In this document: piece after piece, positions 32,395 through 62,827 of the stretch
How positions within the stretch are numbered: the first letter of the stretch is position 1
Layout: each line of letters opens with the position of its first letter
From: Patescibacteria group bacterium
GTDB lineage: Bacteria > Patescibacteriota > Doudnabacteria > UBA920 > O2-02-FULL-48-8
Direction of reading: 5' to 3'
DNA: 64,000 bases
NCBI GenBank assembly: GCA_036394315.1
Contig: DASWFI010000007.1
Span: 3,984-67,983, forward strand
Program-made: the position numbers and the translations under genes
Notes under the pieces: generated by a model
The model's input: the letters and a program-made list of their open reading frames with translations, nothing else
Told to the model about the DNA's origin: nothing
Database searches by the model: none

Positions 32395-32469
32395 GCGCTC
32401 GTCGTTCAACGGATAGGACTCAAGCTTGCGGAGCTTGTAATCGAGGTTCGATTCCTCGCGAGCGCACCA
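32395..32469 (+). tRNA. tRNA-Arg (anticodon reads GCG), CCA encoded
   Basis: GCGCUCG...CAAGC-UUGCGGA-GCUUG...CGAGG-UUCGAUU-CCUCG-CGAGCGC-A-CCA; the acceptor stem is perfect. Confidence 0.85.
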
Positions 32470-37846: not shown

Positions 37847-39676
37847 CTATTCGTTGTTATTACGTTGCGCCTGCAGTTGTTTTTTTGCTTCCTCGATTTC
37901 CAGAGCGCGTTTGGGGTCAGTGGTAATAATCTGATCTTCCATATATGAAGCTATAATCTTGATCGCGACATGCTTGAGTCCAGCGAAGAAAATTCCTTCA
38001 CCCACATCAGATTCCAGGAGCAGATACTTCTCCCCTTCGGTGAGGTGGAAGGTTTCGGTGATTAGATCAATCGAAGTTGGCGACTGCTTGAGCAACATTT
38101 GAATCGAAGAATTATTTACGATCGGCGCCCCGTACGGCGATTTCAAAAAATCACCGACATCCTGAGTAATTGTAGTTACCCCCAGATAATATTTTCTCGC
38201 ACGTTTGGCGATATTCGATAAGAATAAAGCTGAGTCGTCGCGCTGCATCATCCACCAAGCTTCATCGATCACTAAAATCCGCTTCTTCAGAGACGAGCGT
38301 ACCACGTTCCAGATGTAACTCAGCGTAACATAGATCGCAATCGGCCTCAGCTGATCTTCCAAATCCCGCACTGAAAATACCACCAACTGGTTATTTAAAT
38401 TAATATTGGTCCGCTGATTAAAAATCCCTGAGAAAGTTCCTTGAGTGTATTTGGTCAGGCGCTGCGCCAGACTCTCGCCACCCACCATCCCTCCTAAAAT
38501 TTCCACCAAATCCTGCATGATTGGCGGTTCGACATTGCTTAAATTGGAATTCGCGGTAATATCTTTTTTAGCGTAAGTTTCCCAGAGTGCCCGATCCATT
38601 ATGGATTCTTCAGTGGGATCCAGCTTACCTAACATCAAATTCATAAGTCCCAAAAGACTGACCACGGCAGCGCGTAAAATATCTTCGTTGGACTCCCCTT
38701 CGATCGCACGTGGCAGATCAAACGGATTGACCCTTGAATCGGAATTCAGCGAGATATTCAGAAAAGTCCCGCCTACAGCGTTGGAGAGATGCTGGTATTC
38801 GTTTTCCGGATCTATAACGATGACATCCGTGCCCAACATAAGAGAACGCAAAATTTCAAGCTTGACCGCATAACTTTTGCCGCTGCCCGATTTGGCAAAC
38901 ACCACGGAGTTGGCATTTTCCATCTGAAACCGGTCAAACAATATCAACCCATTATTGTGGCGGTTGATTCCATAGAGTATGCCGTCGTTGGAAGTAAGCT
39001 CTGAGGAAACAAAAGGAAAAGTCGTGGACAGAGGTTCCGTATTCATATTCGTGGCAATAGCCAGTTCGTCGTTCCCCAAAGGCAATGTGGAATTAAAACC
39101 TTGCTCCATCTGCAGTATGGCAGGCTTGGCCATGATCAGCTTGGAACCCAAAATTGATTCCAAAGTAGCTGAGGTCTGATCCAGTTCTTTTTGTTCGTTG
39201 GCGTAGATCGTGAAATACACTGAAAATCGGAAATATCTTTCAGTGCCCTGCTGCAATCTGTCCCGCAGGCCCTCGATATCCTGCAGGGCGGTCTCCATCA
39301 TCGGATCGCGGACGTTTCCTTTTTCCTGGCCCATGCGCATGGAAGATTCGACTTGTCCGACTTTATTTCGCAGTTTTTTCATTATCTCCTCAGTATCCAT
39401 TGGGTATATAAACATCGACATGTCCATGGGTACATCGAGACTAATGATCGGAGCCAGCCAGTCCACGGAAATAAACCGCGGATAAGAAAGGACGAAAAAT
39501 GTCCGGGCCAGTTTACCCGAAACTTCCACGGAATTTTGAGTAACGCGAAAAGCTGAAGGCGCGATCAAATCACGCAGAGTGTTCAATCCTTTTTTGTACT
39601 CACGCTCTTTTTCTACCAGCTGCCTTTGCAGCTCGCGTTGAGGATCCAATTGTTGATTTACCTTAAATAATGCCAT
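37847..39676 (-). CDS. VirB4/TrbE/TraC-family type IV secretion ATPase
   Basis: Walker A VVFAKSGSGKSY and Walker B RILVIDEAWWMM; size and motif spacing fit the VirB4 C-terminal ATPase domain. Confidence 0.8.
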   Translation of the reverse strand: MALFKVNQQLDPQRELQRQLVEKEREYKKGLNTLRDLIAPSAFRVTQNSVEVSGKLARTFFVLSYPRFISVDWLAPIISLDVPMDMSMFIYPMDTEEIMKKLRNKVGQVESSMRMGQEKGNVRDPMMETALQDIEGLRDRLQQGTERYFRFSVYFTIYANEQKELDQTSATLESILGSKLIMAKPAILQMEQGFNSTLPLGNDELAIATNMNTEPLSTTFPFVSSELTSNDGILYGINRHNNGLILFDRFQMENANSVVFAKSGSGKSYAVKLEILRSLMLGTDVIVIDPENEYQHLSNAVGGTFLNISLNSDSRVNPFDLPRAIEGESNEDILRAAVVSLLGLMNLMLGKLDPTEESIMDRALWETYAKKDITANSNLSNVEPPIMQDLVEILGGMVGGESLAQRLTKYTQGTFSGIFNQRTNINLNNQLVVFSVRDLEDQLRPIAIYVTLSYIWNVVRSSLKKRILVIDEAWWMMQRDDSALFLSNIAKRARKYYLGVTTITQDVGDFLKSPYGAPIVNNSSIQMLLKQSPTSIDLITETFHLTEGEKYLLLESDVGEGIFFAGLKHVAIKIIASYMEDQIITTDPKRALEIEEAKKQLQAQRNNNE

Positions 39677-39683
39677 AGCAATA

Positions 39684-40379
39684 TTATTCTCTAGCTATAT
39701 CGAGCTCGTCTATACTTTTAATTTTTATCGGAGATGCTGTATCCAGGTTGTAGCTGTTGTAAACTAGTTCTATCAATTCTTCGGTGTTAAGCGCGATAGT
39801 TTTTAATCCCATTTGAGCCAAGCCGGTGGTTACTTGATTGACTCTCTTAAGTAATTCTTCGCGCGCTTTTTCGAAATCCCGGTTTTTGATAGATATTTCC
39901 TTAGCGGGATTAAACAAATTGGTAAACTTTTCAAAAAATCCTTTTTTAACAGCGCCCGTGCCTAGAGGAATAATAACGTAAAAAGTTTTATTCATAATAC
40001 TGGCAAACTCAATCAGCTTCTCTATGTACTCGACATATTCCTGGGTCTGCATCCGGAGCAGTTCATTTGTCTGCTGCTGCATCACTCCCCGCAATTTATC
40101 CAAATAAGAATTAATATCTAGCTTCCTTGATTGCATTAAAATCTGAATGGAAAATTCCAGAGCATTCAGAAAATTTTGATAAGATCCGATGAGAGCATTT
40201 TGCTCCTCCGCGCTTTTAAGAGAAAAGTTGGTAGATGATACTGCCAACACCGCACGCAACGAACCATCTCGCAGGACCATCGTGGCTTCTTTGATCTCTT
40301 GAATATCCAAATACGCCTGCGTGGACGCAGTGGGTTTGTTGCCAGACATGGAGTTAGATTGCATTTCTTGCTTTGCCAT
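39684..40379 (-). CDS. Hypothetical protein immediately upstream of VirB4 (possibly a separately encoded VirB4 N-terminal domain)
   Basis: 231 aa soluble protein, 8 nt from the VirB4 start. VirB4 here is about 200 aa shorter than typical. Confidence 0.4.
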   Translation of the reverse strand: MAKQEMQSNSMSGNKPTASTQAYLDIQEIKEATMVLRDGSLRAVLAVSSTNFSLKSAEEQNALIGSYQNFLNALEFSIQILMQSRKLDINSYLDKLRGVMQQQTNELLRMQTQEYVEYIEKLIEFASIMNKTFYVIIPLGTGAVKKGFFEKFTNLFNPAKEISIKNRDFEKAREELLKRVNQVTTGLAQMGLKTIALNTEELIELVYNSYNLDTASPIKIKSIDELDIARE

Positions 40380-40822
40380 TATGATTTTTGTTCTAACAGC
40401 TTTTTTTCCTCTTCCGTTTTCTGGTCCAGGAGATAAGCCAGTTTTTTCAAACGGCTTTCGTTCGGTTCATCTAATTTATTCTTGGCCAAAACTATAGTTT
40501 CTGCTTTTTTTTCTGTCTTAAAAGACATGTTCACGCTGACATCCTCCCGCTTAAAAATCCTCACTTGGGGTCTTGATGTAAAAGCCACAAACACTCCAAT
40601 ATAACTGAAGAGTGGTCGGCCGTTAAATTTACCAAACGTAAGTCCTAACCCTAATAAGGAAGTAGGGATTGCAAAAAAGTAAAAGAAGATGGACAGCTTA
40701 AGCAGGGAGTAAAAAAACATGACTATGCCGCCGGTTGCTAGAATAATCAAAAACTGCTTTAAAGTCAGAGGGCCAATCAGTTTATCTTCGACTTCTGTGA
40801 ATTGTGGTACAGCGTATTGCAT
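40379..40822 (-). CDS. Small 2-TM membrane protein (VirB3/PrgI-like position and topology)
   Basis: 147 aa with two adjacent hydrophobic helices; translationally coupled to its neighbour. Confidence 0.45.
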   Translation of the reverse strand: MQYAVPQFTEVEDKLIGPLTLKQFLIILATGGIVMFFYSLLKLSIFFYFFAIPTSLLGLGLTFGKFNGRPLFSYIGVFVAFTSRPQVRIFKREDVSVNMSFKTEKKAETIVLAKNKLDEPNESRLKKLAYLLDQKTEEEKKLLEQKS

Positions 40823-40966
40823 TTGTTTTGAGGGTGATTTTGTTTCAAAAACTGTCTAAAACTTCTCAAACATTATACCACAAAAGATCAATCTAATCAA
40901 AAAAATCCTTACGTAGACACCCTAGAACCTTTCAAAGTCGGTCGGGAATGGGATACTCCGTATAAT

Positions 40967-41410
40967 CTAACGCACAAAGTTTCTCAGCCATTTAGCCCAC
41001 CCCTCTCCTTCATCCTCATAAATGCTCCAAAATTCAGCAGGCCGGACAATCTTAACGCCCTTGTATTTTTCTATCTTCAAAAGATGCCTATCAGAAGTGA
41101 TTAGATAATCAGCAAAGCTGGCCACAGCCGATTCCAAAATTTTATTATCTTCATTGTCTTCTTCCACCACACTCAGGCGTTGCGAATTGTTTACGGGTTT
41201 GATGGTATCGAAAAAGTACTCCAGTTTTTTTAAATATCCTTCATCAGAAATTTTTTTATTCGCCAAAAACTTATTTTCTCTCAATGTTGCTGTGTTGGCG
41301 TAAGCTTCTATTTGCCCGCCAATAACCAGATCAACTATCCGATTACTGTAATTATAAAAATCGGATGAGCCGTCAATAAGAAGATTTGTATCTATTACAA
41401 TTTTATACAT
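40967..41410 (-). CDS. PIN-domain nuclease (VapC-like) embedded in the T4SS-like operon
   Basis: MYKIVIDTNLLID...D...SDR: the acidic residues of the PIN fold are present; 147 aa. Confidence 0.65.
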   Translation of the reverse strand: MYKIVIDTNLLIDGSSDFYNYSNRIVDLVIGGQIEAYANTATLRENKFLANKKISDEGYLKKLEYFFDTIKPVNNSQRLSVVEEDNEDNKILESAVASFADYLITSDRHLLKIEKYKGVKIVRPAEFWSIYEDEGEGWAKWLRNFVR

Positions 41411-41512
41411 AAATGACTAATTACAAATTTCCAGGGACAAATAAATAATGCCCAATTTTCAACTTGGACATTATATCATTTTATTTGAAACTTGTAATTT
41501 GATATTCAATGC

Positions 41513-43111
41513 TTACAATCTTTGTATTTCTTTTCTCAAATCTGCTATGGCTTCAAATTCTTGTTTAGTCAAATCATTATTTGTTTCCACTCCTGAAAAT
41601 ATCGCTTGGCCGTGAGCCATATAGGATCGGAACAGCGGACTTTCTTCAAAAGCAGTCAAAGCATAATAAGGTATAACTCTATTTGAAAGCGCCAGATCCA
41701 CAATTTTTGTTTTCAAACGCTGAATTTGCTGATCCAATGGGCCTCGTCTCAAATGACTCAACATGATCTTTTTCAAATCATCCATATTTTTTATGTCTGA
41801 AAAGGTCGCCTCAAAAGTGGAAACCGGCCTGGTTATTTTCTCTGGTCCGATAGATGTCGAGTCGGATGACCGGACAGATGATGGAGCAATACTGGCCGGA
41901 GTTACTACTGGCATAGGTGTTTGGAGTATTATTGGTATAGCTGGAGCTACAGTTGCCACTGGGGCCGGTGGTTTAACTACGGGTGCAGACGGTGCAGTTA
42001 TAGCCTTAGGTGCCACATACCGAACTTGTTTCGGGATCTCTGTGTGGGGCGGCAATTCAGGCGTTGAAACCTCTCTCTTGATCTCAGAATTTATTTTATT
42101 CAAATCAGGGTTATTCTTAACCACGGGAGGGGGTATTGGCTTTACTTGCGCTTCCATTCGATGCTTCAAAACTTCTAAATCAGCTCCGTGCCCGGCCGGT
42201 GGAGGAGCAGAAACTTCAGCTAGTTTTTTCTCAAAGGCAGTAATTTCTTTAACCGCTTGCGGGGCGGAGGGTATGAGTGGTTTAGCCATTACAGATGTTG
42301 TAGGCTTAAATGTTGGCACTGAGGATAAAACTGGTTGTGGCTCAGGCCTTAGTGGTTTTGGAACTGGTGGTCGAGTAACGGAAACTGGCTTAGGTACTGG
42401 AATAGGTGCGGGTTGTAATGCTTCTTCCTTTTCTATTACGGGGACATAATTTGGATATTTTAACAAATTATAAATACCTAACACTGAAGACAACAATTGT
42501 TTATCGCCAGGACTCAATGTCTTAACATTTGGACTTGAATAAAAATATTGAGTCATTTGATAGCTGACCCCGCTTAAAGATTTGGGATCAATATAACCCA
42601 AGTAATCTTTAATCCAATTACCAAGGGTATTACGAACGCTCTCTCCGGTTTTTAAACTTACCTGTTGGGTACCGATAGTTTCCTCATTTTGTGCCAGAGC
42701 ACGGATGAGCTTTTGCCTTTCCTCAAAATCCGGCTCTGCTCCGAACTCAAATAGCCGCAAGTACTTCTGAAGGTAATCGATAACACTCGTATTGTTCTTC
42801 ATAGAAACCACTATAATTTCAGAAAGGGTCTGTTCCCGAAATTTATTACCCAACATCTGAAACGCTTGCCAGCCGAGTTTCATTTGAATTTTCTTAAGCC
42901 TGGTATAAATCTCTGTCCCGTTAATCACGCCGGCATATTTATCGACTAATGCACCCAAAGTTTCGTAAAGTTCCGCTCCCTGACCCGGCTCGTAATCATA
43001 CATCGGATCCGATGCCAGTTTTTCAATCAAACCCAAAACTTTCGGATCTTTTAATTGATCCGCTGTCAATCCATTCAAGCTCTCAACTGATAAATTATTC
43101 AGATCTGTCAT
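41513..43111 (-). CDS. Pro-rich hypothetical protein (two globular domains joined by a ~200 aa P/V/K-rich linker)
   Basis: 532 aa; the antisense Gly-rich ORF 41763-42449 is an artefact of the Pro codons. Confidence 0.5.
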   Translation of the reverse strand: MTDLNNLSVESLNGLTADQLKDPKVLGLIEKLASDPMYDYEPGQGAELYETLGALVDKYAGVINGTEIYTRLKKIQMKLGWQAFQMLGNKFREQTLSEIIVVSMKNNTSVIDYLQKYLRLFEFGAEPDFEERQKLIRALAQNEETIGTQQVSLKTGESVRNTLGNWIKDYLGYIDPKSLSGVSYQMTQYFYSSPNVKTLSPGDKQLLSSVLGIYNLLKYPNYVPVIEKEEALQPAPIPVPKPVSVTRPPVPKPLRPEPQPVLSSVPTFKPTTSVMAKPLIPSAPQAVKEITAFEKKLAEVSAPPPAGHGADLEVLKHRMEAQVKPIPPPVVKNNPDLNKINSEIKREVSTPELPPHTEIPKQVRYVAPKAITAPSAPVVKPPAPVATVAPAIPIILQTPMPVVTPASIAPSSVRSSDSTSIGPEKITRPVSTFEATFSDIKNMDDLKKIMLSHLRRGPLDQQIQRLKTKIVDLALSNRVIPYYALTAFEESPLFRSYMAHGQAIFSGVETNNDLTKQEFEAIADLRKEIQRL

Positions 43112-43114
43112 GTT

Positions 43115-45826
43115 TTAAATGGGATTACCTCTATCATCTGTAAGTATAACGCGAGGTGTTTCTGGTTCTGGAGCTCTACTCCTACCCCCTTCTCCACCGT
43201 CGCCTCCTCCACCTGAACGCGAACTTCTAACAGCCGCTTTAATTACTGTTTTATCTCCACTTGGATCAATATACTCAGTTGTATTGTCATAAGTCACGTT
43301 CCCAATTGTAATTTTAGGTCCTGTATATTTGATTCTGACATTTGTTAATTTATTTCGGAACTTTGTATCCATATTCAATTTTTCAGCATACATGGCTCGA
43401 ACCCCATCAGGTTTGACTTCCCAAGCTTCTTTGATTTTCCTCAATTCAAATGGGTCCCTAATTATCACTGCGCCGAAGTCATTACTGCTTTCGTCATCAA
43501 CCATTTCAGAAGTCAAAATACGATCTTTGGTTCTAATTTGAACATTTTGCATACGATTAATAACTTGATCTTCACTAAACTGATCATTAATCTTATGATA
43601 GTGTGCTTGCGAAGCTTTTGTAATATTCATAGGACCCCAAATAATTGACTGGATTTCCTTTTCTCCCGTGACTGGACTTCCATCCTTAGCGTAGCTAGTA
43701 ATAATCTTTCCAGTCTTTTTATCCACTCTCGCCAGTTGTGGTCGCAAAGCATGCGGTGCCGTAGCGATTATATCATTTGCTTTCTTTTTCTCCCATTCAC
43801 CCGCAGCATAGGATGCTTGATGAGTATTTTCCAGTTCATCAATGTTTTCTCCCAGCGCATTCTTAACTTTGTTACCCGTCTTTTTCATGCCCCACTCCCA
43901 TTTATTATTGTTTATATCAAAATAAGAATGTCCAAGATATTCAGCATGACCAGTATTCTTCCCTGCTTCTTCCATATCTTCTCCTACAAATCTCATAGCT
44001 TGTTCGCTATTACCCAAGAAACCTTTTAAGAATCTCTGAATTGAATCCGGACTACTTAAAAGGACAGCATCGTCTCCATTCTCATCTTTTACAACTTCAC
44101 CGTATTTGGCAGCAAAATGCTCCATTCTCAACACATCGTCCTGAAAACCATTTGACAGAGCAGCTTTCATAGCGGCAAGTCTGGTAGTTTCGCCTTCATG
44201 GCCGCCTATCTTCTCAGCCTCAACTAAATAGTTCATTAACTGTTCTTTCTTCATATCGATCAAATATTTCAACTTTTCGTTTTCAGCTCTTCTTTCAGCA
44301 AACTGCGCTCGAGGCAAATTAGTACCCGTAAATACTTTTTCTGCAACTTCTTGTCCTCTTGCTTCTGCAACTTCCTGCGCATGATGGGATAGTTCGTGAG
44401 ATCTTTTTTGAGCTCCTTTAAACGCTGCAACTGGATTGAGCACAGCAAATGCTGCTCTTCGGGTCCATCCAGGTTGCCCGCCATCATGCGGTTGCATTAT
44501 ATGCGAAGTTGCTTCATTCCACTTACGTCCTGCATATCCTCCAGCCATATGTGCTACGCCATGGCTAAACTTTTCTGCAGCTTGCACTACTGCTTTTCCA
44601 CCAACCATACCCGCGTGTTCGGCGACAATTACTGCTCCCCAAATAAATCCCATTAAGATAACATAATTAAAAGCTGAATCCGACGCTGTAAAAGATTTAT
44701 CTTTAGCTACCAACACAGCTAACTGCAACATAAACAAAGCTACCGGTGGCCAGATCAAATATTTGATAAAGTACTGCCACCATTCATGAGCATAATGTTT
44801 CGTAGCGGGTAATACATGCAGAGCATAAGCCAGTGGCGAAAAAATAACCAAAACGTACACGCCCACGATTCGTATAACAAATAATCCAGCTAATGCTAAA
44901 AAACTCGCCAGAGCAACAAAGGTGAAAACGATTTTGGTTATACCTTGGAATAATCCAGCCATCCAGCCGTTTGGCAGCGAACCCAAATCGCTAAAATTAA
45001 CATACCGATAAACAAAAGCCCATATTTCACCGTGATTGGTGCGGAAAACACTAGTCAAGACATTCACCGTATCAAGCAAGGTAGTAGCAATGACCATGCT
45101 AAAATTGACCAATAATGCCATCATTACAGTTTCTGCTAAAAGATGCCGATAATCATAACTTTCAATCCTAAGAATTGCCGCAAGGCCGATGACGATCAGA
45201 ATTAAAATAAAGAACATATTGCTAATATCACGCACAATTGTCCATCCTACAGCCACAAAGGCTGGCATAGTACCTGCTAAAATCCAGTTAACTGCAGTCG
45301 TGAAAATATCTCCGGCTAAAGCCGTCATCCATAAAAGAAAAGCATTCACTGCTGATAATACAAAATTTAAACTCCAACCAATTAACTTACTCGGCCATGC
45401 CGCTGCATTTTGAGCATTCATATCATCCAGATATGCTTTATAAATATCTTTAGATGAAAGTCCGCTTCCCTGCTCTATTCTATTTTGGAGATCATATGAA
45501 CCTGGCGGCTGCTCTACTCGGCCGGCTGAAGTTGCTGAGTATCCAAGATTCTGAGGAAGTATGGTACATCTGGTAATGTTGCCAGTTCGAGTAGGAGTAA
45601 TAACATATAAAGTAGTAAACCTTTTCCCAGTCGCATCTTCAATTTCTTTTCTAAGAGTACCTTCACAAATTGTCTGAGTTTTGTGTGCCTCACCCATTTT
45701 CTTGGCATCTATCTTTATGTCCTGACCTGGTGCTGCCGGCGCAGGCTGTTGGGCAAAAGCAAAATTAACCAGCAACAGGTTTGAGAGGACGAAAATTACG
45801 ATTAATTTTGTAAAATTTATTTTCAT
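43115..45826 (-). CDS. Large polytopic membrane protein with a signal peptide (VirB6/TrbL-like core) plus a ~480 aa C-terminal soluble domain
   Basis: 903 aa; cleavable N-terminal signal, about 6-7 TM helices at aa 130-400, and a C-terminal domain containing an HELSH (HExxH) motif. Confidence 0.55.
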   Translation of the reverse strand: MKINFTKLIVIFVLSNLLLVNFAFAQQPAPAAPGQDIKIDAKKMGEAHKTQTICEGTLRKEIEDATGKRFTTLYVITPTRTGNITRCTILPQNLGYSATSAGRVEQPPGSYDLQNRIEQGSGLSSKDIYKAYLDDMNAQNAAAWPSKLIGWSLNFVLSAVNAFLLWMTALAGDIFTTAVNWILAGTMPAFVAVGWTIVRDISNMFFILILIVIGLAAILRIESYDYRHLLAETVMMALLVNFSMVIATTLLDTVNVLTSVFRTNHGEIWAFVYRYVNFSDLGSLPNGWMAGLFQGITKIVFTFVALASFLALAGLFVIRIVGVYVLVIFSPLAYALHVLPATKHYAHEWWQYFIKYLIWPPVALFMLQLAVLVAKDKSFTASDSAFNYVILMGFIWGAVIVAEHAGMVGGKAVVQAAEKFSHGVAHMAGGYAGRKWNEATSHIMQPHDGGQPGWTRRAAFAVLNPVAAFKGAQKRSHELSHHAQEVAEARGQEVAEKVFTGTNLPRAQFAERRAENEKLKYLIDMKKEQLMNYLVEAEKIGGHEGETTRLAAMKAALSNGFQDDVLRMEHFAAKYGEVVKDENGDDAVLLSSPDSIQRFLKGFLGNSEQAMRFVGEDMEEAGKNTGHAEYLGHSYFDINNNKWEWGMKKTGNKVKNALGENIDELENTHQASYAAGEWEKKKANDIIATAPHALRPQLARVDKKTGKIITSYAKDGSPVTGEKEIQSIIWGPMNITKASQAHYHKINDQFSEDQVINRMQNVQIRTKDRILTSEMVDDESSNDFGAVIIRDPFELRKIKEAWEVKPDGVRAMYAEKLNMDTKFRNKLTNVRIKYTGPKITIGNVTYDNTTEYIDPSGDKTVIKAAVRSSRSGGGGDGGEGGRSRAPEPETPRVILTDDRGNPI

Positions 45827-45859
45827 GTGAGCTTAAAGTCTACTAATTTATTGCAATGT

Positions 45860-47245
45860 CTATGGTGATCCCGGTGGTTGAGGTGGCGGGAATCCCGAAG
45901 GAGGTGGACCAGCAGGAGGGAGGGTGCCTCCGCTATTTAGAATAGTGGCTGACCCAATACAATTATTGGGAGGAGTACCACCGAAGATACAATGATCAAT
46001 AATGCCAGTGCCGGAATAACTTACAGCGTCCGCGATACCATCGCCATCAATATCAATATCACCTGGGGACAATTGACCTGGGGCGGGCGTCGTCGCATTC
46101 GGATCACCATAGTCAGTACCAGCATAAACATTAGGGCTGTCTGTCAAAACCCCACCAGTTTTATCTAACCCCAGTTGATTCCAAATAAATTTTCCGAAAG
46201 ATTTGCCGACTTGTGTCCAAAAATCCGTAGAAGGATTATATAAATTGTTGAAATGCTGGCTGATAGCAGCATCCAAATTCTTTTCAATAAATGCAGTTGG
46301 ATTATCGATAAATGACCTGGCTTGATCCACCAGTGAAGCTTGCCATTCCCCTCCTCCGGCCTTGCATGCTGCAGGAGACGTATTAGGGTCAGCTACCGCT
46401 TGCGCCGAAGCAACTTTGATAATACCTAGTTTGTTTAATATGGAGGCTAAAGGGCTCAGCATATTTGGATTATAAGCTCCGCCGGGAGGTGTTGGAAGAG
46501 GCACAACAGTGCCAGGCAATTGTCCTGGTGGAATACCCGGAGTAACTTGATTTGATGGAATTCCTCCTTTACAGCTTCCGCCGATAATTCTTCCGTTCTT
46601 AATCCCCTTGCCCGCCAAAATTTCCAACTGTGAGGCGGAGGTGGCAGAGGATTGGAAAGCGCCGAATTCGCCTTGCAGATTTTGTTCCGTAAAGCTTGGC
46701 GGATTGGAGAAGTAAGCTTGGGCTGCTGCAAAGTATTCCCGATCAGAATTGAAGCTGGATGGATTATAAATTTTCTGCGGATCAATCCCGCCTCTATTAG
46801 TGTATGCCTTATTGATGGCTTTATTTAATCTCGGAATCAATGCTTTGCTCGGATTAATCCCCCCAGTAGTGCCTGTGGGTTGTCCCGTTATAGCAGCCCG
46901 CTCCATTAAAGAATAAACATCTCTTAAATCCGGATCAGTAATATTATCAGCGATATATCGATTCAAATAATAATCCGTCAGTACCCTATCGTAATAAAGG
47001 TAGTTACGGATTTTATACTTATCTACCAATTTATTGGTAAATCGTGTAAGAAATTGTTCTGTGAATCTTTCCAAAACGCCGCGAGCAATACCAATCCCAA
47101 TACGCTCCGCAACCCAACGTATATCAATAGTTGGAAACACTGCCTGCGCTGTTTTTGGAGCAATCAATATACCACCCGTAACTTGAGTGGCTATCAGGAT
47201 TGCGAGAATCGCTCCGGTAATTAATTTAGAAAGTTTGGCTTTCAT
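45860..47245 (-). CDS. Secreted Gly/Pro-rich hypothetical protein
   Basis: Signal peptide MKAKLSKLITGAILAILIATQVTGG and a C-terminal PPAGPPPSGFPPPQPPGSP tail. Confidence 0.5.
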   Translation of the reverse strand: MKAKLSKLITGAILAILIATQVTGGILIAPKTAQAVFPTIDIRWVAERIGIGIARGVLERFTEQFLTRFTNKLVDKYKIRNYLYYDRVLTDYYLNRYIADNITDPDLRDVYSLMERAAITGQPTGTTGGINPSKALIPRLNKAINKAYTNRGGIDPQKIYNPSSFNSDREYFAAAQAYFSNPPSFTEQNLQGEFGAFQSSATSASQLEILAGKGIKNGRIIGGSCKGGIPSNQVTPGIPPGQLPGTVVPLPTPPGGAYNPNMLSPLASILNKLGIIKVASAQAVADPNTSPAACKAGGGEWQASLVDQARSFIDNPTAFIEKNLDAAISQHFNNLYNPSTDFWTQVGKSFGKFIWNQLGLDKTGGVLTDSPNVYAGTDYGDPNATTPAPGQLSPGDIDIDGDGIADAVSYSGTGIIDHCIFGGTPPNNCIGSATILNSGGTLPPAGPPPSGFPPPQPPGSP

Positions 47246-54860: not shown

Positions 54861-55378
54861 ACTGGCCTTTCTAAAACATATTCGATAAATTTATTAATAT
54901 CAGTATGATTGGGATTTGGGTTGTGAGGAAATTTGAATCCCAAAGCGTCCAAAAGATCCAGAGAAAAACTATCCAGCAATCCGTAATCTACGGCAAAGTA
55001 ACTTGGTTTGTCTAAATTGATCAGAAATTCCTTCAGTAATAGAAATACTGTTTCATTTGGATGCTCATCCGCCGTCAATTTCAACATCAGCTCGGCAGCA
55101 TAGAATCCAATTGCGGTTTTCTGCAAATCTTCCCGCAAGCTTCCAAATTGCCGGATGCACTTGGCTCCAATCAAAACCGGCAATTGAGAACCAACAATAT
55201 CTATCTCTGACAACCCCAGATCCTGTACGGCGTAATTCAGCTTGCTTTTGGGCAGCCGGAGAGATTTTGCCAATACTCGCACCTTGCCTGCTTCTTGCGT
55301 CCATACAGTCAATATTTGATCGGCTTCCTTATAATTTTGTTTCTTTAGGATAACTCCGGTGAGTTTCTTATATTTCAT
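54842..55378 (-). CDS. recO: DNA repair protein RecO (short form: OB-fold N-domain plus helical domain)
   Basis: MKYKKLTGVILKKQNYKEADQILTVWTQEAGKVRVLAKSLR matches the RecO N-terminal OB fold. Confidence 0.7.
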   Translation of the reverse strand: MKYKKLTGVILKKQNYKEADQILTVWTQEAGKVRVLAKSLRLPKSKLNYAVQDLGLSEIDIVGSQLPVLIGAKCIRQFGSLREDLQKTAIGFYAAELMLKLTADEHPNETVFLLLKEFLINLDKPSYFAVDYGLLDSFSLDLLDALGFKFPHNPNPNHTDINKFIEYVLERPVWMIKF

Positions 55379-58300
55379 TTAGTCAACGCGATGTCCACAC
55401 TTTTGCCTTCAACTTCAAACTTTTCTCCCCCCGCTTCCTTAGAAATCTTATTGATATAGGTCTTTTTTGTGTCGAAAAGGTCAAAAGCGGCGATTAATTC
55501 GTCATCATCAGTATTATAAGATAAATTGACGATTTCCCCAACTTTTAAGCCGGATTTTTTCCGCAAATCCTGCACAGCGCGTTCCAGCTCCCGAGCCAAG
55601 CCTTCTTTTTTAAGCTCAGATGTTAGATTTAGATCAAATTCCAATTTATCGCCGAATTTCACCGTCTTTACATTCAATTCCTCAGCCAGAATATCAGTAT
55701 AATCTTTGCGAAGTTCGTTCTTGTCATTATATGTTACCGAGGCCAATGGTTGACGTAATTTTATATTCGCGGCTTTTCTAAGCCCATGACCCTGCTCAAC
55801 TAAGTTGCGCACCAATTCCATTTGCTCCAAAACTTCCTTTTGATCTTTGCTCAATTCTTTCTTTTCCGGCCACTTGGCTAAATGAACTGAAAGCACGGCC
55901 GGATTTTTATTCAGATTACTGTAAATTAATTCCGACATATAAGGTATTACCGGAGCTGAAACTTTAGCCATTACCAGAAGTGCATGACGCAAGCTGCCGA
56001 AGAAATGACTGTCCTTTCGTCCGCGACTTCTTCGCAAGTACCAAGTCGATAATTCATTTATATATTCCTCGATCGCTCTGGTGGCACGCACAGTATTGTA
56101 TCCATCCAATTCATCTGTAACGGTATTTACCAACTCCTGCGTCTTAGCAACAATCCAAAGATCCAGGACATTCGTCAAATCCGGTTTGTATCCTGCTGGC
56201 TTGGGTTCCCACCCTGCTTCATTGGCGTACGTGACGAAATAATTATATACGTTCCATAAAATCAAAATATTTTTTCTGTAAATCACACTTAATTCTCTTT
56301 CACTAAAATTCAGATTATCGGCATTCATCACTGGCGAGTTCATTAGATAAAATCTCATAGCATCTACGCCATACTTCCCCATGACTTCCCATGGATCGGG
56401 ATAATTATTTTTTGACTTACTCATCTTAGAACCATCTTCAGCCAAAATTGTTCCGGTGGTCACCACGCTTTGGAATGGTGCTTTGCCGAACAAATTATAT
56501 GATATGACATGCATGACATAAAACCACGCACGCGTTTGAGCGATGTATTCGGCTACGAATTGTGCTGGGAACCGGCTTTCGAAAACCTCTTTCTGGTCAA
56601 ACGGATAATGATATTCGGCAAACGGCATAGAGCCTGCTTCCACCCAAGAATCGAATATTTCTGGGGTTCTATGGGCATCCTTGCCACACTCTTTGCATTT
56701 CAAAACCACATCGTCAATATACGGTCGATGCAAATCTACAATCGAAACATTTATCTCGAAAACTTCCACATATTTCGGGTACGGTCTTTCAGACCCAAAG
56801 TGTCTCATTAAAACCAAAAGCGGATCTCCATGACCCACTACTAAAATCTTCTTACCTTCATATTTCTGATTAACTTCATTCACAAAATCAACCATTCGTT
56901 TTTGAACTTCTGCCCAGGTTTCTCCGCCCTTGGGTGCTTCTGTCCATAGATCGTGCTTATTTGCGAATTCATTCTGCCATTCTTTTTCCGATTTGCCCTC
57001 AAATTCACCGACGTTATATTCCCGCAGTCTCTCATCAGTCTTTATTTCCAACCCTATTTTTTTCGCCAATATTTCTGCCGTATGCCTTGTCCGTAAAAAA
57101 TCAGACGTGAAAATCAAATCTATGCCGAGCTCTTTAATCTGCCTGGCTAAATTTTCCGCTTGTGATAATCCTTCCTTTGACAAACCAAACCGATCTTTCT
57201 CAATGGAATTAGAAATAACATTCAAAACATTTTTTTCTGACTCCGCGTGCCGGACAAAATAAAAAGTATTTTTTTCCAAACCTAAATCTTTAATACTGCC
57301 GGCCACCGTGTTGTGTCCGTCTTCGCACTTCCAAACCGGGATCGGATTGCCCCAGTATCTATTTCGAGAAATATTCCAATCAGGAGCCGCTTCTACACTC
57401 TTTTGATACCGACCGTGCTTCAGATGTTCCGGATACCAGTTGATTTCTTTTTCGTTAGTTTCCAGGAGTCCTGATTTGATCTTTTGAATATTCATAAACC
57501 ATGCAGGAATGGCATTGTAGAAAAGCGTCGTGCCACAACGCCAGCAGTGCGGATACGAATGCTGGTGTTGTTGTTTGGCAAACATCAATCCCCTACTCTC
57601 CAAATCTTTCTTGATCAATTTTTCTGAATCTTTAAAATACATTCCTCGAATCAGCTCCGGAGCTAAGGTATTAAACTTTCCCTTTTCATCCAGCAGCGGA
57701 ACGACAGGCAAACCCACTTTCATTCCCAAATTATAGTCATCTTCTCCGTAGACAACAGCTGTGTGCACAATTCCAGTACCCTCTTCTGTATTTACAAAAT
57801 CTGCAGCGTAAACTTTAAAGGCCTTGTCAGATTGAACAGCTGGCACATCAAATAAAGGTTCATATTCAAGGCCAACCAAGTCGGAACCCTTATACTGCTC
57901 TTTTGTGCGATCGTCAATTTTAGTAGTATCCCCAAAGACAGAATTTACTCTATCTATTGCAATAATATAAAATTCATCGCCGACTTTTATTTTGAGATAG
58001 TGAATATCTTCTCCGACTGCCAAAGCCACGTTGCCTGGCAAAGTCCAGGGAGTGGTGGTCCAAGCTAATAAATAAGTATTTTCTTGGCCTTTGACTTTAA
58101 ACTTAACTGTCACTGCTTCTTCCGTCACTTCCTTATAACTATTATCCATGGCGACTTCAAAGTTGGAAATCGGTGTCTCACAACGCGGACAATACAATAA
58201 TACGCGACGGCCTTCGTAAACAAGTCCCTTGTCGTAAATTTGCTTGAACGCCCACCATACGGATTCCATGTAATCACGATCCATAGTTTTGTAAGAATCG

Positions 58301-58746
58301 TCAAACTCCACCCAGCGCGCAATCCGGCGGATGGTTTTTTTCCACTCATCAGCGAATTGCAAAACCATACTGCGACAAGTTTCATTGAACTTTTTAATTC
58401 CCAATTTTTCAATATCTTTTTTTCCGGAAATTCCAAGCTTGCGCTCGACTAACTCTTCTATCGGCAAGCCGTGGCAATCCCACCCCCAGCGCCGACGCAC
58501 ATAGCGCCCGTGCATAGTTTGATAACGGGGAAATAAATCTTTGACAGTGGAAGCTAAAATATGTCCGTAATGAGGCAAACCTGTGGCAAAGGGCGGGCCA
58601 TCGTAAAAAGTATACGGTTGGCCGTTTTTGGTTTGTTCTAGAGATTTCTCGAAAATCTGATTCTCTTCCCAAAACTTCAAAACCTCTTCCTCAAGTTTCG
58701 GAAAGTCTGGTTTTGGATCAATTGGTTTGAAAGGTTGTTTACTCAT
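55375..58746 (-). CDS. ileS: Isoleucyl-tRNA synthetase carrying an inserted histidine-phosphatase (PGAM-like) domain
   Basis: HIGH-class motif PHYGH, CP1 editing region, KMSKS (DGSKMSKSKNN) and the anticodon-binding region. The insert at aa ~494-668 carries FVRHAESEKN (RHG-type), ...IDLIFTSDFLRTRHTAEIL..., ERLREYNVGEFEG and VVGHGDPLL (GHG-type). Confidence 0.93.
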   Translation of the reverse strand: MSKQPFKPIDPKPDFPKLEEEVLKFWEENQIFEKSLEQTKNGQPYTFYDGPPFATGLPHYGHILASTVKDLFPRYQTMHGRYVRRRWGWDCHGLPIEELVERKLGISGKKDIEKLGIKKFNETCRSMVLQFADEWKKTIRRIARWVEFDDSYKTMDRDYMESVWWAFKQIYDKGLVYEGRRVLLYCPRCETPISNFEVAMDNSYKEVTEEAVTVKFKVKGQENTYLLAWTTTPWTLPGNVALAVGEDIHYLKIKVGDEFYIIAIDRVNSVFGDTTKIDDRTKEQYKGSDLVGLEYEPLFDVPAVQSDKAFKVYAADFVNTEEGTGIVHTAVVYGEDDYNLGMKVGLPVVPLLDEKGKFNTLAPELIRGMYFKDSEKLIKKDLESRGLMFAKQQHQHSYPHCWRCGTTLFYNAIPAWFMNIQKIKSGLLETNEKEINWYPEHLKHGRYQKSVEAAPDWNISRNRYWGNPIPVWKCEDGHNTVAGSIKDLGLEKNTFYFVRHAESEKNVLNVISNSIEKDRFGLSKEGLSQAENLARQIKELGIDLIFTSDFLRTRHTAEILAKKIGLEIKTDERLREYNVGEFEGKSEKEWQNEFANKHDLWTEAPKGGETWAEVQKRMVDFVNEVNQKYEGKKILVVGHGDPLLVLMRHFGSERPYPKYVEVFEINVSIVDLHRPYIDDVVLKCKECGKDAHRTPEIFDSWVEAGSMPFAEYHYPFDQKEVFESRFPAQFVAEYIAQTRAWFYVMHVISYNLFGKAPFQSVVTTGTILAEDGSKMSKSKNNYPDPWEVMGKYGVDAMRFYLMNSPVMNADNLNFSERELSVIYRKNILILWNVYNYFVTYANEAGWEPKPAGYKPDLTNVLDLWIVAKTQELVNTVTDELDGYNTVRATRAIEEYINELSTWYLRRSRGRKDSHFFGSLRHALLVMAKVSAPVIPYMSELIYSNLNKNPAVLSVHLAKWPEKKELSKDQKEVLEQMELVRNLVEQGHGLRKAANIKLRQPLASVTYNDKNELRKDYTDILAEELNVKTVKFGDKLEFDLNLTSELKKEGLARELERAVQDLRKKSGLKVGEIVNLSYNTDDDELIAAFDLFDTKKTYINKISKEAGGEKFEVEGKSVDIALTK
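56745..57270 (-). other. Histidine phosphatase / phosphoglycerate-mutase-like domain inserted within ileS
   Basis: All branch-1 histidine phosphatase motifs are present in order (RH(A/G)ES..N; LS..G..QA; ..SS/TSD.LRT..TA; E.L.E.N.G..EG; GHG). The insert is flanked by the IleRS segments GSIKDLGLEKN and VDLHRPYIDDV, which are normally separated by only ~25 aa. Confidence 0.75.
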
Positions 58747-59381
58747 ATTTTTTTAAATTCCCAAAAACCTGCATGCTTTTTTTCTCCGTGTACCTCCAGG
58801 GCTTTTTTTAATTTAGAAAGTTTAAATATTCGCCATTTTGGAAATCGAGGAGATGGATCAATTAATCGAACTGAATCTTTCCCGACCAACCTATCAATCA
58901 CCGAAACATGCCCATCTCTTTCCGGCAGATCGTTGAGTGTACCAAAATCAAAGCATACAATAACATCTTTATCTTTCTTCACCGCATCAGAAATGTAGTT
59001 CTTAAAACTTGCCACGTTTGGGAACTGATTAATCGGCCTATAAGTCATGCGCAATGGAATTTTTAAACTGGAAAATACTTTGTTCGGGTCCACTTCGCGT
59101 CCACTTAACCTGGTCCCATAACCGGCTCTTGGTTTTTTACCTTTTCTGGCATTCCAAAATAAATACCTAAACTCGGGTGCCACTGTTAAACCCAAATGGT
59201 ATCCTAATAATTCCTGCGCGATTAATGGAATTTTTTGCTTATACATTATCATCCAAATACAAGTCGGGACACAGCTCGATCTTTGCTGCGTAAATGGAAT
59301 ATATCGGCTATCTTTAGGAACGATCTCTTTCATAAAAATAAAAAAGCCGCTGATTTTGCGATCCCTTTCGGGAGGTACCAT
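58743..59381 (-). CDS. Hypothetical protein, possible papain-like (C39/transglutaminase-like) cysteine peptidase
   Basis: Q-x5-C (QQRSSCVPTCIWMI) with a downstream His (DGHVSVID); overlaps the ileS start by 4 nt. Confidence 0.35.
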   Translation of the reverse strand: MVPPERDRKISGFFIFMKEIVPKDSRYIPFTQQRSSCVPTCIWMIMYKQKIPLIAQELLGYHLGLTVAPEFRYLFWNARKGKKPRAGYGTRLSGREVDPNKVFSSLKIPLRMTYRPINQFPNVASFKNYISDAVKKDKDVIVCFDFGTLNDLPERDGHVSVIDRLVGKDSVRLIDPSPRFPKWRIFKLSKLKKALEVHGEKKHAGFWEFKKI

Positions 59382-59514: not shown

Positions 59515-61206
59515 TTACATCTCTTCCAAAGCTTCAATCCCTAGTAAATCCAAACCTCGGCTTAGAGCTTTTTTGGCACTAAAAACAAGCGCGATTCGAT
59601 AATTTTTCACTGCTTCATCCGGCTCCTGCGTTACCGGGCTTTCGTGATAAAATCGATTTAGCAAAGTTGCGAAGTTATAAAGATAATTGGCCAACACATT
59701 CGGCAAATAATCTTCAAGGCTATCTGCCACTATTTCGGGAAGGATGGCGGTTTGAAAAAGAATTTGCCTCTCCGTGAGGCTCATGACTATTGTCCCCTGT
59801 AACCTGTCCCCTATAACATGATTTCCCGCCTTCCTAAGAATGCTGGCTAGGCGCGCATGCGTGTACTGCAAATAAGGCCCGCTGTTGCCTTCGAAATCCA
59901 AAGCTTTGTCCCAATCAAACTCAATGTCACTATGACGGTTATGGGAAAGTATGAAATACTTGATAGCTGCCTGGGCCACGGCTGGAATGACATAATCCGC
60001 ATCACTAAGATTGGGATTTTTTTCCGCGATGATCTTCTCCACTTTTTCTTTGGCTTGAGCAATAACGTCTTCAGCTAAAACCATGTTGCCTTTCCTGCTG
60101 GACAAGGCCTCACCTTTAAAACTCATAAAACCATAATCGATGTGCACGGCTTCCTCATCGTGCATGTAGCCAAGCAGTTTTAAGATGGCGAACAATTGTT
60201 TGAACGCGTGTGCTTGCCGCACATCCACCACATAAAGCTGCTTATTGAAGCCAAGTGATTTTCTATAAACAAAAGTTGCAAGGTCGCGCAGCAAATAAGT
60301 AGTGCCTCCGTCGGATTTTACAATCAAGGCAATTCCTAATCCCTGGCTTTCTAAATCTACAATCTGCGCTCCTTGAGATTCCTTCAATAAACCTCTGCCC
60401 TTAAGATCCATGAGGATTGCGGGCATTTTGTCCTGATAAAAACTTTCCGGCCAGTGATGATCGAAAAGTTGAATATTCATCAGCTCGTTAATCTTCAAAT
60501 GTTTTTCGAGACTCCAATCCACAAACTTTTTCCAGATTGCCCTGTTTTCGGAATCACCTTTTTCCAATTTCACAAACTCCTCCTTGGCTTCTTCGTGAAG
60601 CGTTGGATGCTTGGTAATCTCTTCGTTTATCTTTACATAAAGCTTGTTCAGTTCGTTAATCGGATCGGATTCTACGATGCCTTCATTGCCATATTTTTTG
60701 TAAGCTAAAAGCAGCTGGCCAAATTGCGTTCCCCAATCCCCCATGTGAGTATCGGATTCTACTTGGTGACCCAAATATTTTAACTGGCGATAAATAGTAT
60801 CGCCGATGACTGCTGTTTCCAAATGGCCTAAATGCAAAGGCTTGGCCACATTGGGCTGAAAATATTCCACTAGAATTTTTTCAGGCTTTGTTATCTGTTC
60901 ACTGCTATCTATTATCTTACTTACGAGTGCCTCGGGTTTGAGTCTGAAATTAATAAACCCAGGGCCCGCGACTTCTACCTTTTCAAAATCACTGACATTC
61001 ATTTTAGCGATAAGCTGGGTTGCCAGTTCCACTGGCTTCATCTTGGCTTCTTTTGCCAAAATCAAAGCCGCATTCGTCGCATAGTCCCCGATTTTGGCAT
61101 CTGGATATGTGACAGTAATTTTTGATTTCAGTTCATCTGAAATCAAAACACCTGTCGCCTCTGCTGCTTCTATCACTAATTGTTGGATTTCTTTCTTCAT
61201 TAGCAT
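59515..61206 (-). CDS. argS: Arginyl-tRNA synthetase
   Basis: Class I HIGH-like PNVAKPLHLGHL; anticodon-binding DALR domain at the C-terminus. Confidence 0.9.
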   Translation of the reverse strand: MLMKKEIQQLVIEAAEATGVLISDELKSKITVTYPDAKIGDYATNAALILAKEAKMKPVELATQLIAKMNVSDFEKVEVAGPGFINFRLKPEALVSKIIDSSEQITKPEKILVEYFQPNVAKPLHLGHLETAVIGDTIYRQLKYLGHQVESDTHMGDWGTQFGQLLLAYKKYGNEGIVESDPINELNKLYVKINEEITKHPTLHEEAKEEFVKLEKGDSENRAIWKKFVDWSLEKHLKINELMNIQLFDHHWPESFYQDKMPAILMDLKGRGLLKESQGAQIVDLESQGLGIALIVKSDGGTTYLLRDLATFVYRKSLGFNKQLYVVDVRQAHAFKQLFAILKLLGYMHDEEAVHIDYGFMSFKGEALSSRKGNMVLAEDVIAQAKEKVEKIIAEKNPNLSDADYVIPAVAQAAIKYFILSHNRHSDIEFDWDKALDFEGNSGPYLQYTHARLASILRKAGNHVIGDRLQGTIVMSLTERQILFQTAILPEIVADSLEDYLPNVLANYLYNFATLLNRFYHESPVTQEPDEAVKNYRIALVFSAKKALSRGLDLLGIEALEEM

Positions 61207-61532: not shown

Positions 61533-61982
61533 ATGACTAGTCTTGCAAATAATCGAAAAGCGCTGCACAACTATTCCATCGAAGATCAGATCGAGGCGGG
61601 TTTGGTATTGGCAGGGCACGAAGTCAAAAGCATCAGAAACGGCCAGGCCAGTTTGGATGGAGCGTACGTCACGATCCGAAACGGCGAGGCTTTCTTGCGC
61701 AACGCTTACATCGGTAAATACAAGCAAGCAGCAAACCTGGAAGGTTACGATGAGTCCAGAGAACGGAAATTGTTATTGCACAAAAATGAACTATTGCGAC
61801 TTCAATCAAAGACCAAAGAAAAAGGTCTAACATTAGTCCCTTTGCAGATCTACACTTCCAAGCGGCGCCTTAAACTCAAAATTGGTCTCGGACGTGGAAA
61901 GAAACAATACGACAAACGCGAATCAATTAAGAAAAAAGAAACAAAAAGAAGTCTGGACAGAACTATCCGAACCAGAGTATAA
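61533..61982 (+). CDS. smpB: SsrA-binding protein
   Basis: ..KALHNYSIEDQIEAGLVLAGHEVKSIRNGQASLDGAYV.., the SmpB signature; tmRNA lies ~460 nt downstream. Confidence 0.9.
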   Translation: MTSLANNRKALHNYSIEDQIEAGLVLAGHEVKSIRNGQASLDGAYVTIRNGEAFLRNAYIGKYKQAANLEGYDESRERKLLLHKNELLRLQSKTKEKGLTLVPLQIYTSKRRLKLKIGLGRGKKQYDKRESIKKKETKRSLDRTIRTRV

Positions 61983-62012
61983 AAAAGAACCGCGACCTCG
62001 ATGGCGGCGGTT

Positions 62013-62339
62013 TTAGTTATGCGGCTTGAAATAGTAGTTCCTCGTATGGTGGTAGAGCAACTCGGTCTTCCAGAGCCAAGCCTCGGCTTCCAGCCAGTCT
62101 TGTTCAGGACTACTCATGATCCCAACGTCACATCTTCTCTCGGAGATGACATGCGCCAGACTCGCAATACTCGCTCTCGATGGAGCCATATCACGCTCCG
62201 CAGCGATCCAGTCCCCTTCGGGCGTGCCCTCGATTTCATGAGCTTCGCGATGGCGCGAATTAGACCAGGCGCGATGCCTGATCACATCCCGACGAACTTC
62301 AGTCAATCTGCGAATCTGTTCCGCGTCCAATGGAAACAT
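62013..62339 (-). CDS. Hypothetical protein on a GC-rich (~55%) islet inserted between smpB and ssrA; strong GGAGG SD
   Basis: 108 aa; GGAGG lies 9 nt upstream of the ATG; composition is anomalous relative to its neighbours. Confidence 0.45.
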   Translation of the reverse strand: MFPLDAEQIRRLTEVRRDVIRHRAWSNSRHREAHEIEGTPEGDWIAAERDMAPSRASIASLAHVISERRCDVGIMSSPEQDWLEAEAWLWKTELLYHHTRNYYFKPHN

Positions 62340-62446
62340 GCCATACCTCCTCGAGATTGTGTGTGCCTATCATACAACATTAACCCTTGCCAAACAAGTC
62401 TTTTTTTGATAGAATTGATTGACCTCAAAAGAGGTCGCAAAAACAC

Positions 62447-62827
62447 GGGGCTGAATTGATTCGACAGGTGTTCCTTCAAAATCACAGCAAGTCCGATTAG
62501 CCTAATCTCTCGGTTAAAAAGAAAAGGTAAATCATAAATGCCAAAAATTTGGTAAGCAGATTCGTGAATGCTTTTGCATTCTCACCTGCTATGGTTGCTG
62601 CTTAATTAAGTAACAACCCATCAGCCTTTCGGTGTTCTTCCGAAAGTACCTGGTGTTATATTAAGAACTTACTTTGATCGGTACTCGACGATCAAAAGGA
62701 CATTTAGAGCAACCTTAAACTGTTTTCGTTTCGCTTCTATAGTTTAAGATAAACAAGCGAAACTAAACTTGTAGAAGTGGCTTTGAAAAACTCTTGGACG
62801 GGAGTTCACTGCTCCCCAGCTCCACCA
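62447..62827 (+). ncRNA. ssrA: tmRNA (SsrA)
   Basis: 5' GGGGCUGAAUUGAUUCGACAGG matches the canonical GGGGCUGAUUCUGGAUUCGACGGG. 3' GGACGGGAGUUCACUGCUCCCCAGCUCCACCA matches E. coli GGACGCGGGUUCAACUCCCGCCAGCUCCACCA. The G3:U70 pair and A73 are present. A tag ORF ends ...SPAMVAA and is followed by UAA. Confidence 0.82.

Follow-up and report, generated by a model that had tools for sequence, protein, structure and literature searches.

A histidine-phosphatase domain nested in the CP3 module of isoleucyl-tRNA synthetase and its pairing with class I synthetases in Patescibacteria

The ileS gene and its inserted domain

We analysed a stretch of 64,000 nt from a Patescibacteria group bacterium (contig DASWFI010000007.1; hereafter the window), in which the gene for isoleucyl-tRNA synthetase (IleRS), ileS, carries a complete and apparently active histidine-phosphatase domain within its coding sequence. 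A sequence-only reading of the window had proposed an in-frame insertion of this kind into an otherwise intact IleRS. The analysis bears this out: a single open reading frame (ORF) of 1123 amino acids (aa), free of stops and frameshifts as that reading had stated, encodes both the synthetase and a His_Phos_1 match with E = 1.9e-40. The gene, the insert and the two halves of the CP3 module that enclose it are arranged as follows.

55375..58746, minus strand: ileS, 1123-aa type-2 IleRS with insert (single ORF, TIGR00392 and Pfam)
57283..57348, minus strand: N-terminal half of CP3, the hairpin/zinc knuckle hosting the insert (residues ~467–488, NPIPVWKCEDGH...GSIKDL; alignment)
56746..57282, minus strand: inserted His_Phos_1 (branch 1) domain, residues ~489–667 (Pfam and structure alignment)
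56641..56745, minus strand: C-terminal half of CP3, following the insert (residues ~668–702, with DLHRPYID, C684xxC687 and EIFDSW; alignment)

The ileS product scores 822.8 bits against the ileS equivalog TIGR00392 (cutoff 621.4), in a match split into two stretches by the insert, and Pfam identifies tRNA-synt_1, Anticodon_1 and DUF5915. The last of these (PF19302, E = 2.1e-11) is the type-2 C-terminal domain, which replaces the bacterial zinc-binding C-terminus. The best solved relatives are the enzymes of yeast, Candida and T. thermophilus and Priestia IleRS2 (E about 1e-215), whereas the type 1 IleRS of S. aureus matches more weakly (1e-87). Judged by its sequence, the window protein is a type-2 (archaeal/eukaryote-like) IleRS. 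The HIGH and KMSKS motifs, previously described as intact, are found as HYGH at residue 59 and KMSKS at residue 774, and the editing domain (CP1) retains TTTPWT at 230 and GTGIVH (GTGxVH) at 323; all four positions are invariant or nearly so across 103 homologs. Similarity to the mupirocin-resistant enzymes MupB (717 bits) and MupA (681 bits, cutoff 1900) is of the generic type-2 kind only. An identical protein is deposited in the public database as 'class I tRNA ligase family protein [Patescibacteria group bacterium]', on contigs of up to 80.5 kb.

Within the insert, the His_Phos_1 match covers residues 495–651 and profile positions 1–159 of 194, and its 139.1 bits lie far above the cutoff of 21.7, so that the profile search agrees with the sequence-only assignment; all phosphatase motifs quoted in that reading are present in the protein. 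The catalytic set consists of R499, the nucleophile H500, N506, R552, E576 and H639. R499, H500, R552 and H639 are invariant in 104 of 104 carriers of the insert, E576 and N506 are retained in 96% and 95%, and E609 and R617 are likewise 100% conserved, despite an identity of only ~46% over the insert among the same carriers. An alignment of 31 insert sequences gives the same picture of an invariant catalytic core, save for E576 at 90% or more. The window copy reads RHAE where RHGE is usual, a minor lineage-specific variant.

An AlphaFold2 (AF2) model of the whole protein is confident for host and insert alike, with a mean predicted local distance difference test (pLDDT) score of 91.5 and a predicted template modelling score of 0.84; pLDDT reaches 88–97 across the insert blocks and 94.5 when the insert is modelled alone. 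The predicted insert adopts the alpha/beta fold of the histidine phosphatase superfamily. In the model it is a separate lobe that leaves the synthetic and editing sites intact.

The domain had been called PGAM-like. This holds for membership in the histidine phosphatase superfamily and fails for a mutase identity. The window protein reaches no NCBIfam phosphatase or mutase equivalog cutoff: dPGM_arch, a cofactor-dependent phosphoglycerate mutase (dPGM) family, scores 110.9 bits against a cutoff of 225 and all other dPGM equivalogs are below theirs, CobC scores 89.1 against 162.9 and PspA 81.6 against 350, and SixA is missing among the 25 NCBIfam families listed for the protein. The nearest solved structures are the branch-1 phosphatases iPSP1 of Hydrogenobacter (4ij5) and PhoE of Geobacillus stearothermophilus (1h2e/1ebb), which are 26–31% identical to the insert; GpgP, CobC and the riboflavin-pathway HFP are also among the nearest. 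We classify the insert, from these matches, as a phosphatase-type member of the superfamily rather than a phosphoglycerate mutase. Because the dPGM equivalogs stay below their cutoffs and a genome with a copy embedded in valyl-tRNA synthetase (ValRS) encodes a cofactor-independent mutase, iPGM, a few genes away from valS, a glycolytic mutase role is unlikely. At that locus (L008), the insert-bearing valS lies two genes from tyrS–argS and just downstream of pgk, eno and iPGM, the last called as two adjacent genes (split or frameshifted).

The boundaries of the insert were derived from solved type-2 IleRS structures (yeast 8wnd/7d5c, Priestia IleRS2 8c8u), which align to the window protein as far as residue 488–496, resume at 668–670 and have only about 5–8 residues of their own in between (yeast ~7). 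Since the alignments break and resume there, we place the full insert at residues ~489–667 (window ~56746–57282); the interval 56745–57270 of the sequence-only reading, equivalent to residues ~493–667, was accurate. The normal spacing between the GSIxxL and DLHRPYID segments, which that reading had put at ~25 aa, is shorter, at about 4–20 aa in most insert-less relatives.

The insertion point corresponds to yeast residues ~488–496, within CP3 and past its beta-hairpin, and the insert splits the zinc knuckle into a C474 side and a C684xxC687 side. C474 is invariant, and relatives show CxxC in the N-terminal half of the knuckle; H673, R674, P675, D678, C684, C687 and D699 on the far side are invariant in 103 aligned sequences. 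The window knuckle reads CEDGH against CxxCG in relatives, again a minor lineage-specific variant. CP3 comprises residues 459–526 in yeast IleRS and 473–534 in Candida IleRS (PMC7955072, PMC7191050). It carries a zinc motif in T. thermophilus IleRS, and both its topology and its zinc content vary among IleRS structures (PMC7191050), a variability that makes it a tolerant insertion site. The linker between CP2 and CP3, which contributes to the pocket binding the tRNA CCA end and reveromycin, has the sequence ARDWNVSRNRYWG in yeast and APDWNISRNRYWG in the window and ends ~22 residues upstream of the insert.

Distribution, locus context and forms of the domain

The insert is found at the same position in 104 of the 120 best homologs (55–100% identity), which derive from many independent assemblies. 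Taxonomic breadth was taken from the source names of the database matches, and the carriers include Doudnabacteria, Liptonbacteria, Jorgensenbacteria, Saccharibacteria and Minisyncoccia. These 104 independent carriers, together with the identical protein on an 80-kb contig, rule out an assembly chimera and so settle the concern about mis-assembly that accompanied the first reading.

For 98 carriers we compared the insert with the IleRS core. Their distances co-vary (Mantel r = 0.405, 0/999 permutations), and the insert diverges ~1.6 times faster than the core. The repeats flanking the insert are short, AT-rich, of low identity and at chance level, no intein or transposase features were found at the insert, and its GC content is slightly below that of the flanks (0.387 versus 0.420; 0.369 versus 0.425 at third codon positions, GC3). 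Chance-level repeats, co-variation with the host and the small GC difference rule out a recent mobile or selfish insertion. In a neighbour-joining (NJ) tree of the IleRS core, calculated without support values, insert-less Doudnabacteria occupy at least 4–5 separate positions among the carriers, and we therefore infer several precise losses of the insert. The tree and the distances describe largely vertical inheritance with several such losses. No stand-alone phosphatase lies near ileS of insert-less Doudnabacteria at the three loci L001–L003, which are syntenic.

The neighbourhood of ileS in the window contains the following genes.

58743..59381, minus strand: 212-aa ORF in the slot between argS and ileS, unrelated to the phosphatase
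59515..61206, minus strand: argS, encoding arginyl-tRNA synthetase (ArgRS), the conserved upstream partner (Pfam Arg_tRNA_synt_N, tRNA-synt_1d, DALR_1)
61533–61982, plus strand: smpB
62447–62827, plus strand: tmRNA gene, tag AKNLVSRFVNAFAFSPAMVAA

Free-standing genes of the same phosphatase subfamily belong to Patescibacteria/Paceibacterota. On four of four long contigs (L004–L007), the free gene of ~190 aa is located exactly between argS and an insert-less ileS (939–976 aa), and its ends abut or overlap these neighbours in a block of smpB, argS, the free gene, ileS and recO. The window block, with smpB, tmRNA, argS, ileS, recO and a DUF11 protein, is the mirror image of this arrangement. At all four insert-bearing loci examined, namely the window and the distant loci L013–L015, which retain smpB–argS–ileS, the slot between argS and ileS holds no free copy. 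Free and embedded forms are therefore mutually exclusive at argS–ileS across the eight loci examined.

In the window, the slot is occupied by the 212-aa ORF, for which no Pfam, NCBIfam or PHROG match was found and which is not conserved at related loci; it is not a diverged phosphatase. The TGA stop of this ORF shares bases with the ileS start (ATGA), suggesting that translation of the two genes is coupled. A further listed ORF (62001–62459), lying between smpB and the tmRNA gene and overlapping them, matches no family and is likely to be spurious.

To place the insert within its wider family, we scanned 1.84 billion representatives with HMMER, obtaining 22,793 matches, and mapped the best 150; the counts of architectures given below refer to these 150. 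On the sequences recovered, the subfamily occurs in five forms: as a free gene, as a C-terminal fusion to ArgRS, as inserts in IleRS, as tandem arrays and as inserts in ValRS. Pfam scans of nine long proteins identified all nine as type-2 IleRS, whole or fragmentary, and most of the remaining long matches are also IleRS, as determined by local mapping onto the two halves of the window IleRS. Across these proteins the domain is carried at no fewer than three distinct sites, numbered here by residues of the window protein.

Site A (window): inside CP3, residue 488|668; most carriers
Site B: near residue 725, where CP3 meets the Rossmann fold; Peregrinibacteria protein PCI25629.1
Site C: loop ~845–859, past the stem-contact helix and ahead of the anticodon-binding domain; P0123, P0128, P0144 and P0156

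Copies also occur in tandem, two in some IleRS and four in a row in one fragment. Proteins with more than one domain include P0123, P0128 and P0156 (1379–1419 aa), P0197 (1468 aa) and P0121; where an IleRS has two, they occupy different sites (A and C, or B and C) or follow one another at site A.

Genuine ValRS account for four representatives, in which the domain occupies positions equivalent by homology to sites A and B, and among the 120 closest ValRS relatives ~50 have the domain, in Magasanikbacteria and Falkowbacteria; some of these are labelled 'valyl-tRNA synthetase/broad specificity phosphatase PhoE' by JGI. One representative (P0170) is an ArgRS with the domain fused at its C-terminus, the product expected from read-through at the junction of argS and the free gene. 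A single representative (P0232) has a histidine phosphatase fused N-terminally to ATP sulfurylase (Sat, sulfate adenylyltransferase), and a similar fusion is mentioned for a Sulfolobus genome (PMC11237513). The free forms comprise single proteins of ~190 aa and tandem proteins of ~410 aa.

Free, ArgRS-fused and ValRS-embedded copies have in common a subfamily signature, SHGDPLW past the second catalytic histidine and D-x-RLRE-x-N-x-G. An NJ tree of the domain copies has long terminal and short internal branches and gives no order of derivation for the ValRS, ArgRS and IleRS site B and C copies. Net charge separates the forms, at ~+16 for free and ~-4 for embedded copies. In a comparison with neighbouring proteins at loci L004–L007 (free gene at 6001–~6585 in each), the free copies at three of four loci carry +10 to +13.5 charges per 100 aa, equal to SmpB, and ArgRS and IleRS carry +0.4 to +6.

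PhoE and iPSP1 are free-standing enzymes, whereas the window domain is nested in another enzyme and bears the subfamily signature. The nesting itself resembles that of the class Ia insertion modules (CP1 editing, CP2, CP3 and the leucine-specific domain of LeuRS), which are likewise set into the Rossmann-fold catalytic body. Those modules handle RNA or amino acid for the synthetase; the window insert is a complete enzyme of an unrelated superfamily, has an active site of its own and is also found as a free gene. Among curated families, ileS_w_GNAT (NCBIfam NF040702) offers a precedent for an extra catalytic domain in IleRS, with a GNAT domain in place of His_Phos, for which the window protein scores 274.3 bits against a cutoff of 1999 and on which the literature search found no paper. 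RNase H/acid phosphatase (NCBIfam NF005567, whose cutoff of 326 is far above the score of the window protein) and mycobacterial MutT1 (Nudix plus histidine phosphatase) are end-to-end fusions with other partners. Our literature search, directed at this architecture and at precedents for it, retrieved no description of a synthetase–histidine-phosphatase architecture; the Sat fusion in Sulfolobus was the sole related item. Domain accretion by synthetases is known, and automated pipelines already detect the Pfam domain in these synthetases; the new element is the multi-form partnership with ArgRS, IleRS and ValRS across the Candidate Phyla Radiation (CPR).

Proposed function and alternative explanations

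The recurrent pairing with the Ile, Val and Arg synthetases points to an accessory activity of the tRNA-charging machinery, and, among the roles suggested in the sequence-only reading (processing of a phosphorylated nucleotide or tRNA-end intermediate, or a moonlighting metabolic module), the context (argS–ileS adjacency, ArgRS fusion and ValRS inserts) speaks for a link with the synthetase rather than for moonlighting unrelated to it. We tentatively propose, at somewhat less than even confidence, that a synthetase-dedicated histidine phosphatase of the CPR acts beside tRNA charging, with a tRNA 3′-end phosphate or a nucleotide-type product as its candidate substrate. In Patescibacteria/CPR the subfamily would serve class I aminoacyl-tRNA synthetases as a dedicated partner, acting as a small free protein in some genomes, as a C-terminal extension of ArgRS in others and, in the window, from within the CP3 hairpin of IleRS. 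Tethering would place phosphoryl transfer dependent on His500 next to the synthetase, where it may target phosphorylated species of the aminoacylation cycle. The candidates that we consider are (i) a phosphate or pyrophosphate blocking the 2′/3′ position of the terminal adenosine of tRNA (A76), the removal of which would restore a chargeable end, and (ii) a nucleotide-type product such as inorganic pyrophosphate (PPi) or 3′-phosphoadenosine compounds.

We prefer the first candidate on four grounds: the fusion partners share binding of the tRNA end, site A adjoins the linker of the CCA pocket, polycationic free proteins would suit binding of tRNA or synthetase, and damage of this kind exists, in that toxSAS toxins pyrophosphorylate the CCA end of tRNA and thereby block charging (10.1101/2021.04.30.441581; PMC11559606). 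A tRNA-end substrate is nevertheless speculative. The boldest version, in which class I synthetases would possess a third catalytic activity alongside synthesis and editing and remove A76 2′/3′-phosphates or toxin-derived pyrophosphate prior to charging, is doubtful in our estimation; if true, repair of tRNA ends or immunity to toxSAS-like toxins would be built into IleRS, ValRS and ArgRS.

Several observations weigh against the proposal of a phosphatase dedicated to tRNA charging. The sequence of the insert alone points to no substrate, a match to a PHROG of unknown function (8e-29) is uninformative, and comparison with known defence-system proteins gave no meaningful PADLOC match. We know of no histidine phosphatase that acts on RNA ends. 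Along the sequence, both site C and the ArgRS C-terminus lie a long way from site A, and site B is followed by a Rossmann strand. The high charge of the free copies equals that of their neighbours at one of four loci and is partly an effect of low-GC proteomes. Doudnabacteria have lost the insert on at least ~4 occasions and show no free copy at those loci, and these repeated losses indicate that it is dispensable for IleRS itself. Finally, the free gene adjoins argS and ileS, and this closeness alone could favour fusions with both.

The strongest competing explanation is that of an ordinary phosphatase of small molecules (for example of phosphoserine, sugar phosphates or a cofactor), housed in permissive loops of synthetases whose genes are essential and well expressed, unrelated to aminoacylation and recruited by chance because its gene happened to sit in the argS–ileS operon of a streamlined genome. 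The solved structures closest to the domain belong to metabolic phosphatases (iPSP1, PhoE, GpgP, CobC and HFP), its insertion sites are variable surface loops, with a CP3 topology that differs among IleRS structures, and fusion to both partners would be mechanically easy for an adjoining free gene that can evidently be dispensed with after several independent losses. Chance recruitment accounts poorly, however, for a set of hosts made up of class I synthetases throughout, with three different IleRS loops, tandem arrays of up to four copies, parallel insertions into ValRS CP3 and the ArgRS fusion, and with just one of the 150 nearest representatives fused to an enzyme of another kind (Sat). Nor does it explain why the genes have stayed adjacent in an operon, with stops and starts that overlap, across distant CPR lineages, or why free and embedded forms exclude one another at the argS–ileS locus. 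We regard independent moonlighting as unlikely, if still a serious contender.

A second alternative is a built-in pyrophosphatase or nucleotide phosphatase, which would hydrolyse the PPi from amino-acid activation or another nucleotide by-product and thereby pull the adenylation reaction locally. IleRS, ValRS, ArgRS and ATP sulfurylase, the full set of fusion partners, all belong to the HIGH-motif nucleotidyl-transferases, which use up ATP and set PPi free, and with a diffusible substrate the tolerance of varied sites and copy numbers would be understandable. Against this stands the fact that the Sat fusion is a single representative, the published case being archaeal and of generic similarity only. 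Dedicated pyrophosphatases are near-universal and far faster, and to our knowledge no branch-1 histidine phosphatase is an inorganic pyrophosphatase. We consider this alternative improbable.

It is more improbable still that the domain is a regulatory protein phosphatase, which would dephosphorylate the synthetase or a partner, for example by reversing the action of a HipA-like kinase or a phosphohistidine signal: in structure the domain resembles small-molecule phosphatases more closely than it does SixA, PGAM5 or Sts, no conserved kinase is encoded at the examined loci (L001–L007, L013–L015), and we are not aware of IleRS, ValRS or ArgRS as targets of such regulation. An artefact or dead passenger, be it a chimera of the assembly, a selfish element recently inserted in frame or an inert spacer, is scarcely credible, since the slightly lower GC and GC3 of the insert are outweighed by 104 independent homologs with the same codon-level position, co-variation with the core at the Mantel r given above, invariant catalytic residues, a confident AF2 fold, repeats at chance level only and the lack of intein or transposase features.

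Few enzymes are as conserved as the aminoacyl-tRNA synthetases, and where they carry accessory domains, these usually point to added layers of quality control or regulation. The recurrent recruitment of one phosphatase to three class I synthetases in an uncultivated, minimal-genome radiation is a strong Rosetta-stone signal, and it supplies candidates for a step linked to tRNA charging, such as tRNA-end repair, product removal or regulation. The NCBI pipeline names these genes merely 'class I tRNA ligase family protein'. Metabolic reconstructions of CPR bacteria that count His_Phos/PGAM matches as glycolytic mutases may be misled.

Other features of the window

Outside the ileS region, the following features were noted.

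32395–32469, plus strand: tRNA-Arg, anticodon GCG
37847–39676, minus strand: TraG/TraC/VirB4-like ATPase
41513–43111, 43115–45826 (903 aa) and 45860–47245, minus strand: three large ORFs without Pfam match

The cluster on the minus strand (37847–47245) may encode a type IV secretion or pilus-like system. Most bacteria use the anticodon ACG, modified to ICG, for tRNA-Arg; the GCG anticodon in the window may allow TadA-independent decoding of CGY codons.

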